IMG/VR virus record: IMGVR_UViG_3300011399_000002
Span: 1 to 55,870 of that record
Source: a virus
Taxonomy: Duplodnaviria > Heunggongvirae > Uroviricota > Caudoviricetes
Direction: 5' to 3' (one strand)
Length of the DNA: 55,870 bases
The notes beneath the pieces were generated by a model, which was not told where the DNA came from, ran no database searches, and worked only from the letters and a program-made list of their open reading frames with translations. Shown piece by piece: positions 7,294 to 39,520 of this stretch. How positions within the stretch are numbered: the first letter of the stretch is position 1; each line of letters starts with the position of its first letter. Position numbers and translations under genes: made by a program.

Positions 7294-7701
7294 ATGAATT
7301 AGAAAAAGAGAATGAGAAATAAAGATATTTTTAGAGCAGCAATTGGGAGTGGACACTTTCCTCTGACATTCAATTTCGTATATAGAAGGGATGGAAGATT
7401 TATACAGTGTTACGGTTGTGGTAAATATGTCTACTATAGGCAGATTACGCGCGACCATGTGTACCCTAAAAGTAAGGGCGGGCAACTAAAGGCTCCTGCA
7501 TGTATTGATTGTAATATCAAAAAAGAAAACATGCTACCCATTGAATGGGCCATTTACGCTCATAAGCATAACTTGGATGCCGCTACAATCCCTCTTGGGG
7601 CAGAGTACCTACAAGAGTATGTTGATATGCTGCCAAGTAAGCATGAAATGTATATAAACTTCGCTCAACTCTTTGAGCAAATTATTGCCGGTGTAGCATA
7701 A
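7294..7701 (+). CDS. HNH endonuclease; SD-linked ATG 7294 is followed by in-frame TAG at codon 3 (alternative start ATG 7312)
   Basis: CYGCG...TRDHVYPKSKGG...ACIDCNIKK is an HNH signature. GGGAG-6 nt-ATG AAT TAG AAA AAG AGA ATG is in frame with the 129-aa ORF. Confidence 0.8.
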
Positions 7702-11931: not shown

Positions 11932-11937
11932 CTTTAT

Positions 11938-12011
11938 ACTCCTTTAGTGTAAAGGCTGCACGCCTCACTCTAAATGAGAAAGAAGGGGTTCGATTCCCCT
12001 AGGGAGTACCA
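11938..12011 (+). tRNA. Amber suppressor tRNA, anticodon CUA (reads UAG)
   Basis: ACTCCTT/AGGGAGT, D-arm GTGT/GCAC, CCTCA-CTCTAAA-TGAGA, AGGGG-TTCGATT-CCCCT, A73-CCA. Confidence 0.88.
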
Positions 12012-12014
12012 AAT

Positions 12015-12188
12015 ATGCTTGAAGAAGAATTTAAACAGCACCTACGGATTACATTGCTGTGGTACACAGCATGGCTTGTAGCACACGGTCCTAAAGACCC
12101 AGCAACAGATATGAACAAATCTGTTAATACCTTTCTTGAAGAGGATGAAGATTTAATTGTACGATTTTTTGATATGCAGGAGAAGTAA
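12015..12188 (+). CDS. Hypothetical protein (57 aa, not in the ORF track)
   Basis: MLEEEFKQHLRITLLWYTAWLV...FFDMQEK directly after the suppressor tRNA. Confidence 0.55.
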   Translation: MLEEEFKQHLRITLLWYTAWLVAHGPKDPATDMNKSVNTFLEEDEDLIVRFFDMQEK

Positions 12189-12190
12189 GA

Positions 12191-12424
12191 ATGACTTAGC
12201 GTTACCAGATAGACGTTAATGGTTATAAAGTTAAACAGGCTAAAGAAGGTTTGGATACACCTTGTATCCGTATCATGGATAATACTACTGGACAGATTTG
12301 GTATGCCAAGGAGATTAAGTTTCTTGGCCCAACACAAATCTCTCAGTGTGATCCTGATAAAGATAACCTCAACAAACCTTTTATCTGGATTGAGACTGAT
12401 GGTCCTATAGAGTGGACTAAATAA
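12191..12424 (+). CDS. Phage protein of 77 codons interrupted by in-frame TAG at codon 3
   Basis: SD CAGGAG, then ATG ACT TAG and an open frame RYQIDVNGYKVKQAKEGLDTPCIRIMDNTTGQIWYAKEIKFLGPTQISQCDPDKDNLNKPFIWIETDGPIEWTK to TAA. By eye it resembles a widespread small phage family (IHVN...P.I.V...Y..E..ILGP...VWIET). Confidence 0.7.
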
Positions 12425-12427
12425 TTT

Positions 12428-12522
12428 GGCTCGCTAGTGAACCGTTAACACGCTCGGATAAAGTAGGTAAAATCTATGAGCAGGACCGGGAGAAAGAGGT
12501 TAGATTCCTCTGCGAGCCTCCA
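12428..12522 (+). tRNA. tRNA-like RNA: Cys-type acceptor (GGC/GCC, U73-CCA), 28-nt expanded anticodon loop, T-loop TTAGATT
   Basis: GGCTCGC/GCGAGCC, D-stem GTG/CAC, anticodon stem CTCGG/CCGGG, T-arm AGAGG/CCTCT. Confidence 0.7.
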
Positions 12523-12523
12523 T

Positions 12524-13245: not shown

Positions 13246-13278
13246 AGGAGCGGATCAGAAATGATCCCTCCTTTTTTT
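13246..13278 (+). terminator. Intrinsic terminator ending the tRNA array
   Basis: AGGAG(C)GGATCA-GAAA-TGATCCCTCCT followed by a T run. Confidence 0.85.
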
Positions 13279-35512: not shown

Positions 35513-38500
35513 ATGGTATTCCAGAGCAATGCCTTTCAAAGCAATGCCTTCCAATCTGATGAAGAGAATGCCACGTATGTTCACGCCCAAGCACAAGCCA
35601 AGATTAACACCACTAGGGTCCATGCACAGTCTCAGGGCTGGATAGAGCAAACTTATAATGGTTTTGGTCAGGCACAGGCTACTCTAAAAACACCGCTTAG
35701 ATTTGCACAAGCACAAGCACGTCTAACAGATGAGTATGAGCAACTTATCATTAATGCCGCTCCAAACGGTTACTGGCCGCTAGAAGAACTCTCTGGTACA
35801 GTTGCTTATGGTTTAGTAGGACCAGATGGTACGTATACTGGTGCATTAACATTAGGCAATGCTACAACAATGCCCACAGGCTACTATCAGTACGCTATAT
35901 CAAACAACAATACATCTGGCAGATATGGTACTGTTACTCTAGCAGAAATTGCTAACACCTTCACTCTTGAAGGTTGGGCTAAACCCGCTAAAACAATTAC
36001 ATTAGCAACTGAATCTAACTCTGGTACCGGCGTAGGAACAAGTAATACCCAAAACTACATGTTCTACCCAACTCAGAAGGGTACCAATAGAGGTATAGGA
36101 GTATCAGTAGGAACAAACGGTATAGTTGTTGCTGCACACGGCGATGCAACTATTTGTTCTCTTGGTACCTATACGGGAACAATTAGTGGTGTGAATCACG
36201 TAGCAGTTGTTGTAAATGCTAAGGCAGTTACAATATACCTTAATGGCGTGCTGGTTAGAACAGGCTTAACATCGAGCGCAGCAAATGTTTATTCTCCAAC
36301 AACATTTGCTGGTGACGGTTCTGGCTATGGGATATTAAACGGACAATTATCCAACCTTGCTATCTACCCAACAGCACTATCTGCAACAGACATCCTTATT
36401 CATAGCAATGCAGGACGACCTAAAGGATTTGCTCAGGCAGGAGCATTAATCTATCGACTGCCTATGTTTGCACAGGCAACAGCCCTGATCGATTCTCCTA
36501 TTAAGAACGTATATGCCCAAGCACAAGCATGGATGCTGCACAGAGTTAGATTTGCGCAAGCAGCAGGGCATATAAAGGTTGCAACTATTCAATATGTGCA
36601 GCATAAAGAAGCAGGTATCTCAGACCTCAACCCTAAGCAAGTAACGTTTGATAATGCGCCTACACAGGGTAACTTGCTTGTAGCAATAATGACCCACCGT
36701 AACAGCGATACAGCGTCTACTCCTAGTGGTTGGACACTAATCGATAGAGAAGTTGGTGCTGGTAGTGGAAACAGCCCCATCTATATGTGGTACAAATTTG
36801 CTGGTGCGGGTGAAAGTGCTACAACGCCTGACTTTGCTGTAGGTAGACCAGTACGTCTTTCAGTAATAGAATTCTCTGGTGTAGGAAGATATGATAGTGA
36901 GATTGGATTAACTTTCCAAAGTGCTTCTGCAACTCCAACTATTTCGGGCCTCTCACCAACATCAGCAGTAGAAACATTGCTGGTTGCAGGATTTGCAGTT
37001 GATCTTGCTGACTCTGAGCATGATGGCTTTACTCCGGGTACTAACTATGTAGAAATTATGGATGGTAAGGTTGGTACTGGTACTGAATCTCCGCGTGGTG
37101 TAGGAGAGTATCGAATTGCTTTAGTTGCAGGGCCATTCTCTGCATCAGTATCTACAACTCTGTCTCGTAACTGGGGCGGAATACTTGCTGCATTCCTACC
37201 AGCCGCTACGTCTAAGAGTGGACAGGCTAATGCTTTAATCGACTCACCAATCAAAGTACAATTTGCGCAAGCAAATGCTTGGGTTATTCCAACAACCCAA
37301 GTTGCTCAGGCAATGGCTACGCTAAAGACACCAATACGAGCAGCACAGGCACAAGCATACATTGATCAAAGAATTCGTCTAGTACAGTGGGCTACTGCAC
37401 ATCAAGGTAATGACCTTGCAGCACCTACTGTAACATTATCTGCTACCCCAACACCGGGTAACATGATTATCGCTTATGCGATTGCTAGAGGATTTGGCGA
37501 TAATTATAGTTGGACTACAGACGGATTAACGGAAGTTTCCGACGATTTTGCTGGTCAGGGGTTTGATGGAGGCCACTCTTCAATTGCCTATCGTATTGTA
37601 CAGGCTGGGGACGATGCAACATATACCGCTAATCCCAATACCCTAGGTGCAGGTAGAACCTCAGATATTCTTGTAACTGAATGGACAGGATTAAAGGGTC
37701 CAGCATTATATAATACTCAGTCAGGATTAAGCGCAACATCAAGTATGTCTGCTGGACCTGTCACAACAGGTCTTGGTCCAAGACTTATCTTTGCTGGTGT
37801 CAATGCTTCATCTAGACTTCCTAACCATACATGGGGATCGGGGTTCACAAATCTAGGCGGGACTCTTTGGGCTAACGGTTCTGGTCCTGCGGGTAGTGTA
37901 GGCTACAAGATTATAAACGGTACTGGCGGAACAGAGACAGCCACAGTCAGTTCAGATCAGAGCGATACTTACGGGTATCTAATCATCGACTTTGGTAGCC
38001 CGACTATTCAATTTGGTCTGGCTATGGCTTCTATTCTGGCCCTTACCAGTAACTACGGTCATGCCCAAGCAAATGCATCTATAAAGCAAACATACTATAA
38101 ACATGCACAGGCACAGGCATCTATTGTTTACAAGCGATGGGGACATAGCCAAGCACAGGCTATGCTTATAGGTATTGGAAAAAGTCACGCTATTTGTATG
38201 GCCTTCATTCGAAGACCTAACGGATTAGCACAGGCACAAGCCACAATATTTACCTACACAGGTAAATATGCACAAGCGAGAGCAGTAGTTAAGTTACCGG
38301 AGTGGCAACTAGCACAAGCACAAGCGCATATTTATACAACAAGTCATGGCTTTGCTCAGGCATTAGCGTTGATGAATCAATACTGGGCTTGGGGGCAAGC
38401 AGAAGGATCAATCAAGGCTACAGTAAATGCACATGCACAAGCACAGGGAGAGGTTAGATTCTCTGGAGCCCACGGCAATGCAATGGCCTTCATTGATAAA

Positions 38501-39520
38501 TTTGAGGGCTTTGCACAGGCACAGGGTCGTATCCTTGCCGCACTATTAAGTAGATGTGCACAAGCACAGGCACGCATAGTTAAAACTTGGCGAGCCTACG
38601 GACAGGCTATGGCTATGATTGAACAAACACAATCATTTGGATATGGTCAATGCAACGCCTTAATCAACGGACGATCTGCTTGTGGACAAGCGGAAGCATA
38701 CATAGGTCCAGTAAGAATGGCACATGCGCAAGCAGAAGCCTTCATCTTCGATAGACCTAGAGCATGGGCTCAGGCTCAGGCTCAGATTAGTAGACAAGAT
38801 TTCTGGCTTAGATATGGCACTTACACGTTACCGGGATATCTACAGCAAGAAAATTCTGACAGCGGTAACAGATTAACTGCCCATGAAGGTCCATTCAAGG
38901 ACGGTTCATTAAGTGAGGATTTGGGTCTGTCTAATAAGAGTCTTAACCTACGGTTTAAGTTGTTAGGTGAAACCTATGATGACCTAAAGACCGAAGTATT
39001 CAAGGCTGGATCAATCCTACGAAGCACAAGGGGAAGATATGAGAAATTATACCTTACTAACCTTGATCGATACTATCTAGTAAGACCAAAGACTATTAGC
39101 ATGCACTCAAATGCAGCGGATGGTGCTTTAAGAACACTAGAGTATGAGGTAGAATTTGATGCAAAGCCACACATTTATACCGATGTTAGCCACACAATAG
39201 TAGGAGCAGGAAATATTGATACAGGGATTAGACCTATAAGCGAGGGTGGCTGGACACCAGCAAGAATCACTGTAACAGGTACAAATGTTACAGTGTCAGG
39301 ATACACAGAGTACAACGAATTCACTGGGTACTTTGCAGTATCGGGCGCAGTAACAAACCTTGTAATTGATTCAGATACTTATACAGCAACTACAAATGGA
39401 CAAAATAAAAACAATCTAATGAGAAACTTAGACTACACGATCTACGTGGGACCGGGAAGAACATACTTTGCGGTAAGTGGAGCAAGTAATATCGAAGTTA
39501 CATGGAGCAATAGGTGGTAA
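35513..39520 (+). CDS. AQAQA-repeat fibre with LamG and two beta-sandwich domains, fused to a C-terminal Dit paralog
   Basis: LamG segment (GYWPLEE...FTLEGWAK...NHVAVV...IYLNG...LAIYPTALS); last ~255 aa align by eye with 32954-33724 (TLPGY.Q.E..DS, LGL.NK.L.L, LRS.R, DRYY, GGWT). Confidence 0.75.
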   Translation: MVFQSNAFQSNAFQSDEENATYVHAQAQAKINTTRVHAQSQGWIEQTYNGFGQAQATLKTPLRFAQAQARLTDEYEQLIINAAPNGYWPLEELSGTVAYGLVGPDGTYTGALTLGNATTMPTGYYQYAISNNNTSGRYGTVTLAEIANTFTLEGWAKPAKTITLATESNSGTGVGTSNTQNYMFYPTQKGTNRGIGVSVGTNGIVVAAHGDATICSLGTYTGTISGVNHVAVVVNAKAVTIYLNGVLVRTGLTSSAANVYSPTTFAGDGSGYGILNGQLSNLAIYPTALSATDILIHSNAGRPKGFAQAGALIYRLPMFAQATALIDSPIKNVYAQAQAWMLHRVRFAQAAGHIKVATIQYVQHKEAGISDLNPKQVTFDNAPTQGNLLVAIMTHRNSDTASTPSGWTLIDREVGAGSGNSPIYMWYKFAGAGESATTPDFAVGRPVRLSVIEFSGVGRYDSEIGLTFQSASATPTISGLSPTSAVETLLVAGFAVDLADSEHDGFTPGTNYVEIMDGKVGTGTESPRGVGEYRIALVAGPFSASVSTTLSRNWGGILAAFLPAATSKSGQANALIDSPIKVQFAQANAWVIPTTQVAQAMATLKTPIRAAQAQAYIDQRIRLVQWATAHQGNDLAAPTVTLSATPTPGNMIIAYAIARGFGDNYSWTTDGLTEVSDDFAGQGFDGGHSSIAYRIVQAGDDATYTANPNTLGAGRTSDILVTEWTGLKGPALYNTQSGLSATSSMSAGPVTTGLGPRLIFAGVNASSRLPNHTWGSGFTNLGGTLWANGSGPAGSVGYKIINGTGGTETATVSSDQSDTYGYLIIDFGSPTIQFGLAMASILALTSNYGHAQANASIKQTYYKHAQAQASIVYKRWGHSQAQAMLIGIGKSHAICMAFIRRPNGLAQAQATIFTYTGKYAQARAVVKLPEWQLAQAQAHIYTTSHGFAQALALMNQYWAWGQAEGSIKATVNAHAQAQGEVRFSGAHGNAMAFIDKFEGFAQAQGRILAALLSRCAQAQARIVKTWRAYGQAMAMIEQTQSFGYGQCNALINGRSACGQAEAYIGPVRMAHAQAEAFIFDRPRAWAQAQAQISRQDFWLRYGTYTLPGYLQQENSDSGNRLTAHEGPFKDGSLSEDLGLSNKSLNLRFKLLGETYDDLKTEVFKAGSILRSTRGRYEKLYLTNLDRYYLVRPKTISMHSNAADGALRTLEYEVEFDAKPHIYTDVSHTIVGAGNIDTGIRPISEGGWTPARITVTGTNVTVSGYTEYNEFTGYFAVSGAVTNLVIDSDTYTATTNGQNKNNLMRNLDYTIYVGPGRTYFAVSGASNIEVTWSNRW

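Follow-up and report, generated by a model that had tools for sequence, protein, structure and literature searches.

The 55,870-nt stretch of phage DNA analysed here (hereafter the window; positions 1 to 55,870 of the IMG/VR record IMGVR_UViG_3300011399_000002, assigned to the Caudoviricetes) covers the first 55.9 kb of the genome of an uncultured phage, which is complete at 119,870 bp and has direct terminal repeats. Its transfer RNA (tRNA) genes, 18 in the window and 28 in the genome, lie in a long array with small open reading frames (ORFs) interspersed, and one of these ORFs is the subject of this work. Behind the Shine-Dalgarno (SD) sequence CAGGAG, the gene opens with ATG ACT TAG and runs on for 74 sense codons to a TAA, and its product would have 77 residues if the in-frame TAG at codon 3 were decoded (Table 1). 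A first-pass annotation made from the letters alone had described exactly this arrangement, and the sequence reads as it said. It had also placed the gene 180 nt downstream of a suppressor tRNA, and ARAGORN and Rfam both recognize a tRNA with the amber-decoding anticodon CUA whose end lies exactly 180 nt before the ATG on the same strand. This tRNA(CUA) folds into a canonical cloverleaf with an encoded CCA end, an A1-U72 pair, the discriminator A73 and a 4-nt variable loop. From the comparison of relatives presented below, we consider it quite probable that translation of the gene is controlled by the amber suppressor of the phage and that the UAG at codon 3 is kept on purpose.

A word-indexed search of 5.8 billion proteins, with position 3 filled in the query as the first-pass annotation had proposed, retrieved 13 relatives of the predicted product. 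In the databases, this family is disguised. Some of its members are full-length and have glutamine at position 3, and others are truncated to 54-62 residues. The DNA behind these entries shows that the glutamine-containing forms are gene calls made with TAG translated as glutamine and that the truncated forms contain the same TAG; specifically, entries P0002, P0004-P0008 and P0016 either start at an internal Met, Val or Leu or owe their glutamine to short contigs called under the TAG=Gln code. The glutamine at position 3 in the databases is an artefact of the gene caller and not evidence that glutamine is inserted. With further loci from IMG/VR and the Joint Genome Institute (JGI) metagenomes, 12 distinct homologs with readable DNA were assembled, 57-88% identical to the window protein at the amino acid level. 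Every one of them has a GGAG-type SD 7-9 nt before an ATG or GTG, followed by ACN or TCA, then TAG and the conserved ORF, and a sense codon at position 3 was found in none of the relatives. Codon 2 is limited to Thr and Ser (ACN in nine homologs and TCA in three).

The pattern of substitution around the TAG is that of a translated gene. Synonymous sites are saturated across the homologs (proportion of synonymous differences, pS, about 0.8), and in the 28 columns that are invariant at the amino acid level no codon with synonyms is restricted to a single form; TGG and TAG alone are invariant at the nucleotide level. If UAG merely represented an amino acid with ordinary codons, at least one lineage should have CAG, CAA or AAA in its place; the fixed TAG argues that being a stop codon is itself the selected property, and not an amino acid that CAG or AAG could equally specify. 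Between the TAG and the first alternative start of the window gene (codons 4-20), the ratio of nonsynonymous to synonymous differences (pN/pS) is 0.18 with pS of 0.83, compared to 0.33 for the rest of the gene, so that selection is purifying and not relaxed as the first-pass annotation had envisaged for a pseudogene. Synonymous turnover is seen immediately behind the TAG (CGT, CGG or AGA for Arg4 and TAC or TAT for Tyr5), and the combination of purifying selection with such turnover indicates that translation extends beyond the TAG. The arrangement of SD, start codon, one codon, TAG and a long ORF occurs at two sites in the 119,870-bp genome, both in the tRNA array, and a chance origin of the TAG is excluded by its invariance in all 12 diverged homologs.

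The claim that the gene has no alternative start stands on the upstream side, where a TGA at 12170 closes the frame and leaves no other start, and needs qualification downstream, where the in-frame candidates are TTG 12251 (codon 21) and, as annotated, a first ATG only at codon 29 (12275). The TTG is the start picked by the mechanical ORF list, and the sole SD-like bases in front of it, GAAGG, end 1 nt before it. In 8 of the 12 homologs the corresponding column is not a start codon at all (GCA, ATT, GAA, GAC, ACT or ACA). The only usable start is the one two codons before the TAG.

Two conventional explanations of a stop codon in this position have to be weighed against these data. The first is a pseudogene, a recent nonsense mutation or a sequencing or assembly error at codon 3. 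Dead genes commonly show a lone in-frame stop close to their start, and gene callers do truncate or skip this one; yet the same TAG recurs in 12 independent, diverged assemblies, purifying selection acts on either side of the first alternative start, and the TAG does not vary by a single nucleotide in a family saturated at synonymous sites, while the 57-88% identity among homologs excludes a single contaminating sequence. We therefore regard a dead gene or an erroneous sequence as extremely improbable. The other explanation, that the real protein starts at TTG 12251 or ATG 12275 and that ATG-ACT-TAG is a regulatory two-codon mini-ORF upstream of it, is somewhat less remote but still very improbable. 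It agrees with the ORF list and with those database entries that start at the TTG, and minigenes composed of an SD, AUG, one codon and a stop do exist, for example, the bar minigenes of phage lambda (PMC2490762 and references therein), to which ATG-ACT-TAG with its own SD is formally equivalent. However, the lambda minigenes are not followed by conserved in-frame coding sequence, whereas here 74 conserved codons under purifying selection come after the stop, and residues 4-20, which a downstream start would discard, are the best-conserved part of the protein. Moreover, an SD at a usable distance is lacking before both TTG 12251 and ATG 12275, the TTG is not maintained as a start among the homologs, and distant relatives of the protein that have no TAG align with it from residue 1. 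By these comparative measures, the gene with the codon-3 TAG (hereafter the gated gene) is a real protein-coding gene maintained by selection.

The suspected connection to the suppressor tRNA also held up, in that the gene and a tRNA(CUA) co-occur. Each of the 13 distinct loci that carry the gated gene has a CUA tRNA on its contig; 11 of these tRNAs are called by ARAGORN, and in the remaining two loci, both on short contigs (L010, approximately 990-1065, and L018, 1578-1655), a CUA-containing tRNA-like sequence that ARAGORN missed sits in the expected place. The tRNA overlaps the end of the gene or begins 6-360 nt downstream of it in 10 of the 13 loci, usually 6-9 nt past the stop codon of the gene, although the distance is 190-270 nt in three loci and about 350 nt in two; in the window, L008 and L010, it lies upstream. 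The adjacency of the two genes has thus outlived rearrangement of their order. In L012 (99-388) and L018 (1362-1655), the acceptor and D arm of the CUA tRNA double as the last five codons of the gene and its stop codon. The 11 CUA tRNAs are 70-89% alike and resemble one another more closely than they do any sense isoacceptor; all keep the CTA triplet, and compensatory changes are found at 17 of the 21 stem pairs. The tRNA(CUA) family is thus under structural selection.

As a handle independent of both genes, we used the large terminase subunit to fetch 21 related loci. Eight distinct tRNA arrays without a CUA tRNA contain no homolog of the gated gene, and a search of the whole records of five relatives did not find it either. 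The closest complete relative, G001, whose large terminase is 84% identical to that of the window phage, is devoid of the entire block 11932-12523: its tRNA-Ile and tRNA-Gln genes are 1 nt apart, and in the window the same two genes are separated by the cassette that contains tRNA(CUA) and the gated gene. Among arrays of at least about 4.6 kb, the gene is present in 6 of the 7 with a tRNA(CUA) and in none of the 9 without one (one-sided Fisher test, p of about 9e-4, a value that is indicative only because the loci are phylogenetically related). Taken together, these comparisons show that the gated gene and tRNA(CUA) are physically linked and are gained and lost together.

The remainder of the cassette (Table 1) offers some additional clues. 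The 57-codon ORF between the tRNA(CUA) and the gated gene, for which a Pfam search gave no match, ends in a TAA located 2 nt before the ATG of the gated gene, so that translational coupling is possible; in L010, a 70-codon ORF ends 1 nt before its gated gene. The first-pass annotation put tRNA and gene on the same transcript. On the plus strand, terminator-like sites are lacking between the two, with the first such site at 13252, past the array, and we infer that they are co-transcribed. It further had the gene end 4 nt before the next RNA gene, and here the outcome is mixed. The element that follows the TAA aligns with the ordinary tRNA-Cys(GCA) that relatives carry in its place, and it has a 7-bp acceptor stem, a T arm, U73 and CCA; however, it contains a 21-nt insertion in the anticodon loop, located 5' of the GCA triplet, and neither Rfam nor ARAGORN, the latter also run with introns permitted, recognizes it. 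Possible identities are a tRNA that carries an intron, a disrupted tRNA and an RNA derived from a tRNA. A blastn search with the region returned matches to tRNA-Gln genes only. At 108688-108757 of the genome, outside the window, ARAGORN additionally reports a 70-nt tRNA-SeC(tca).

Table 1. Features of the amber-gated locus and of the second candidate site; coordinates are those of the window
Feature	Coordinates	Strand	Source or support
HNH endonuclease gene (possible second target): SD GGGAG, ATG AAT TAG (TAG 7300-7302), then 132-codon ORF	7294-7701	+	
Cassette: tRNA(CUA), 57-codon ORF, gated gene and tRNA-Cys-like element, between tRNA-Ile and tRNA-Gln	11932-12523	+	Comparison with G001
Phage tRNA, anticodon CUA (amber suppressor)	11938-12011	+	ARAGORN; Rfam tRNA model, 56 bits
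57-codon ORF between tRNA(CUA) and gated gene	12015-12188	+	ORF list
Shine-Dalgarno sequence CAGGAG, 8-nt spacer to ATG	12177-12182	+	Sequence; GGAG-type SD in 12/12 homologs
Putative amber-gated gene: ATG (12191-12193) ACT TAG, 74 sense codons, TAA (12422-12424); 77 residues if TAG decoded	12191-12424	+	
In-frame TAG at codon 3 (putative gate)	12197-12199	+	TAG in 12/12 distinct homologs
tRNA-Cys-like element with 21-nt anticodon-loop insertion	12428-12523	+	Alignment to tRNA-Cys(GCA) of L009, L010 and L002

The only other site of this kind in the genome, in the same tRNA array, belongs to an HNH endonuclease gene with its own SD and a TAG as the third codon. In this case, the TAG is absent from the HNH homologs of L014, L015 and G001, and translation could instead begin at an ATG at 7312, so that the HNH gene is only a possible, unproven second target of the suppressor. 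Whole-genome scans for genes with in-frame TAG (stop-to-stop frames, a codon-usage score and ORF lists of suspicious regions under TAG=Gln) turned up nothing convincing besides 12197 and possibly 7300. Two same-frame pairs of long ORFs split by a TAG, at 59454 and 112968, were examined and set aside; they look like separate genes, as the downstream ORFs have their own starts 5-13 codons past the TAG, preceded in the pair at 59454 by a clear GGAGG SD.

Apart from this locus, the phage uses the standard code and is not recoded. Its coding density under code 11 is normal, with a densely coding plus strand, and of the features of code 15 phages it has the CUA tRNA and lacks the multiple in-frame TAGs, the abandonment of TAG as a terminator and the helper genes. 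Some of these very observations weigh against control by the suppressor. TAG ends 21 of the 97 long plus-strand ORFs and 29 of the 136 putative genes of a crude gene set (about 21%), and there is no excess of nearby backup stops behind these codons (median of 14 codons to the next TAA or TGA). With so many genes ending in TAG, a strong suppressor would be costly, so that suppression must be weak, brief or tolerated. Domains of release factors (PF00472) and of Gln/Glu-type (PF00749) and Lys/Asp/Asn-type (PF00152) aminoacyl-tRNA synthetases were not found in the genome, with matches obtained in the controls. To the same side of the balance belong several features of the relatives. L026 has a tRNA(CUA) (1881-1954, between tRNA-Phe and tRNA-Lys) but within 17 kb it lacks any homolog of the gated gene, and therefore the tRNA may have other uses. 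The homologs all belong to a single lineage of uncultured phages whose tRNA arrays are syntenic, and the co-occurrence counts are therefore not independent. The CUA-containing sequences of L010 (odd D arm and T loop) and L018 (a 6-nt anticodon loop, CCCTAA) are irregular; errors of assembly, decay of the tRNA or an unusual mode of decoding may lie behind this and, if the sequences are non-functional, read-through in these two loci would need another agent. Finally, the discriminator base varies among the CUA tRNAs (A in the window and U or G elsewhere), which makes the identity of the charged amino acid uncertain. An attempt to assign the amino acid of the suppressor led to no assignment, as the nearest tRNAs are other CUA tRNAs and the discriminator is not constant.

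Several of these points can be read in favor of alternatives that accept the gene and its TAG and differ in how the codon is passed or what it is for. The UAG might be read without the phage tRNA, by a near-cognate host tRNA or through inefficient action of release factor 1 (RF1) on a ribosome carrying a dipeptidyl-tRNA, with the tRNA(CUA) linked to the gene by nothing but shared ancestry of the array. That termination has to compete with drop-off when an ORF is very short (PMC2490762), the irregular tRNAs of L010 and L018, the solitary tRNA of L026 and the single lineage would all fit this scenario, but it does not account for a CUA tRNA beside the gene in all 13 loci and for the absence of the gene from all 9 arrays without one, nor for a linkage that survives rearrangement and a cassette that is present or absent as a unit in the comparison with G001. 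On balance, we deem suppressor-independent reading unlikely. Marginally less likely still is a dual device, in which the protein is half of the function and the mini-ORF of the off state acts on its own, for example by sequestering tRNA-Thr or tRNA-Ser as peptidyl-tRNA or because the ribosome-free downstream RNA alters processing or transcription of the adjacent tRNAs. The restriction of codon 2 to Thr and Ser would make sense under such a scheme, as would the documented effects of minigenes (PMC2490762) and the position of the ORF end, 6-9 nt before the tRNA(CUA) in most relatives and within it in L012 and L018. In the latter two loci, translation and processing by RNase P must interfere, since cleavage at the 5' end of the tRNA would remove the stop codon of the ORF and make tRNA and protein mutually exclusive products of any one transcript; interference between translation and tRNA processing is plausible in the other loci with abutting genes as well. 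However, the dual device is purely inferential, the order of the genes in the window is the opposite, with the tRNA upstream, so that the geometry needed for interference is not conserved, and strong conservation at the protein level shows that the protein matters.

The suggestion that UAG encodes a non-standard, pyrrolysine-like amino acid derives from the tRNA-Pyl label that ARAGORN gives to any CUA anticodon, and we consider it as remote as a dead gene. tRNA-Pyl does not have the shape of an ordinary elongator tRNA. The tRNA of the window, in contrast, does have that shape, as seen in its D loop with GG, the T loop TTCGATT, a 5-bp anticodon stem and the 4-nt variable loop, and no synthetase of the Gln/Glu or Lys/Asp/Asn type was found in the phage, pylS and pylBCD not having been searched for specifically. 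We accordingly retain suppression of the codon-3 amber by the phage tRNA(CUA) as the preferred reading.

The product of the gated gene is a small protein of unknown function, and the expectation that it would belong to a widespread family of small phage proteins received only indirect support. The window protein has no match in Pfam, and hmmscan against PHROGs yielded phrog_11199 only, with a chance-level E-value of 0.056; conversely, phrog_8676 searched against the whole genome had no match at E <= 1, and in 50,697 genomes of isolated phages tblastn located neither the gated protein nor the large terminase. The close homolog P0016, however, matches phrog_8676 with an E-value of 0.0022. An exhaustive profile search of 1.84 billion representatives recovered 20 proteins at E <= 0.001, among them distant relatives that have ordinary N-termini without a TAG and most of which, among those scanned, match phrog_8676, a family of unknown function. 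When the profile of the gated family was compared with that of the distant relatives using hhalign, the two aligned over 71 columns with a probability of 99.7% (E = 2e-25), and 5 of the 9 rows in the alignment of distant relatives match phrog_8676 with E-values from 8e-17 to 3e-5. The gated family thus appears to be a distant sister branch of PHROG 8676 and not a member of it. The two share protein length and the motif pattern IxVN...G..P.I.I...YA..V.I.GPS...WIETDG.I; unlike the gated gene, the genes of PHROG 8676, widespread among phages of Proteobacteria and found in those of Pelagibacter, Methylophilales, Agrobacterium, Brevundimonas and Shewanella, have ordinary N-termini and are located among small hypothetical genes, not beside tRNAs. 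Because the distant relatives begin normally, the gate would be an innovation of one sub-branch, added to an older family. The TAG aligns with a variable N-terminal position of these relatives, so that almost any inserted residue should be tolerated, which fits the varying discriminator base of the CUA tRNAs.

An AlphaFold model computed from the 12-sequence alignment is mostly beta, with a predicted local distance difference test score (pLDDT) of 78 and a predicted template modelling score (pTM) of 0.62. Foldseek detected no match in PDB at E <= 0.001, and the best hit of VIA-align among 48,161 chains (Z of 4.0) is at the level of noise. In BFVD and AFDB, the model is matched by models of uncharacterized small phage and cellular proteins at a template modelling (TM) score of about 0.7, one of them fused behind a helix-turn-helix (HTH) domain.

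If the preferred reading is correct, initiation at the SD-linked ATG would produce fMet-Thr, and with UAG in the A site, termination by RF1 or drop-off of the dipeptidyl-tRNA would compete with the phage tRNA(CUA), which presumably decodes the codon. This tRNA, whose gene is part of the same 0.6-kb cassette, would permit elongation to the 77-residue protein once a host synthetase has charged it, and the output of protein would track the amount of active suppressor tRNA relative to RF1. Since the gate is at codon 3, the off state would give a dipeptide and no truncated protein, so that without the tRNA nothing harmful or wasteful would be made. On very short ORFs, as minigenes illustrate, termination competes with drop-off of peptidyl-tRNA (PMC2490762), and this competition may favor codon 3 as the place where a suppressor can win. 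With a single codon, such an arrangement would switch the protein on, delay it or limit its dose in a phage that otherwise keeps the standard code, and its purpose could be to delay expression until the tRNA array is expressed, to cap the dose of the protein or to read out the strength of suppression. A considerably bolder proposal is that a CUA tRNA and a codon-3-amber gene form a mobile, self-contained two-part switch, that the protein feeds back on suppression, for instance through RF1 or through processing or charging of the tRNA, and that codon-3 gating is general and convergent and explains the orphan suppressor tRNAs of standard-code phages; we consider this extended version rather doubtful.

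The closest known parallels are the TAG-recoded code 15 phages that encode suppressor tRNAs, including crAss-like, Lak, Jade and other phages (bioRxiv 10.1101/2021.08.26.457843; PMC7886860), in which many in-frame TAGs occur, chiefly in late and lysis genes (bioRxiv 10.1101/2021.08.26.457843). With these, the window phage shares a tRNA(CUA) together with an in-frame TAG in a phage gene, in a host that presumably uses the standard code, and the idea of recoding as a post-transcriptional regulator, with expression awaiting the suppressor. The differences are that here a single TAG, fixed at codon 3, affects one gene or perhaps two while TAG remains a common terminator; that the target is a small protein rather than a lysis or structural protein; that no module of release factor and aminoacyl-tRNA synthetase genes for a change of code was found; and that the tRNA and its target make up one small cassette gained and lost as a whole. 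The Xanthomonas jumbo phage XacN1, which uses the standard code and likewise has CUA tRNAs in a large tRNA array, is instructive in that its authors could identify no target for them (PMC5852040). In the case described here a conserved target exists, but its TAG is at the 5' end of the gene, and a target search of the kind made for XacN1 would miss it. We inspected positions 36560-39053 of XacN1 (L049, AP018399.1), 2.5 kb of unannotated sequence after two tRNA-Sup genes and ORF088, and found no convincing TAG-containing ORF. This segment has no convincing ORFs at all and may hold structured RNAs.

Among cellular systems, prfB, the gene of release factor 2 (RF2), is autoregulated through an early in-frame UGA that is passed by +1 frameshifting and thereby senses its own product. 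A conserved early in-frame stop that senses the competition between termination and recoding is common to prfB and the gated gene, whereas in the latter a cognate suppressor tRNA would decode the stop, and any feedback from the protein is hypothetical. In Streptomyces, the host gene bldA encodes a tRNA-Leu(UAA) that reads the rare sense codon TTA and gates regulatory genes. Here too, a single tRNA would control very few genes that contain its codon, but the codon is a stop, and the tRNA and its target are adjacent on a phage. In the manner of bldA and prfB, very few genes contain the gating codon, and its place at codon 3 is the same in 12 of 12 homologs. In the literature searched on phage suppressor tRNAs, we came across no account of a lone amber gate at codon 3 coupled to its tRNA; the gate would be a new form of stop-codon recoding, private, borne on a cassette and confined to one small gene.

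For the annotation of phage genomes, the consequence is that gene callers miss or truncate such genes or call short contigs under code 15, and the databases therefore hold wrong N-termini for the whole family. CUA tRNAs occur in many phages that do not use an alternative code, and their targets have been an open question; here, a target was identified by comparison alone. The cassette would be a minimal natural counterpart of the amber-gated switches of synthetic biology and, with one tRNA, one codon and a 77-residue product, would provide a clean system in which to see how suppression is balanced against RF1 in a phage that leaves its code unchanged.

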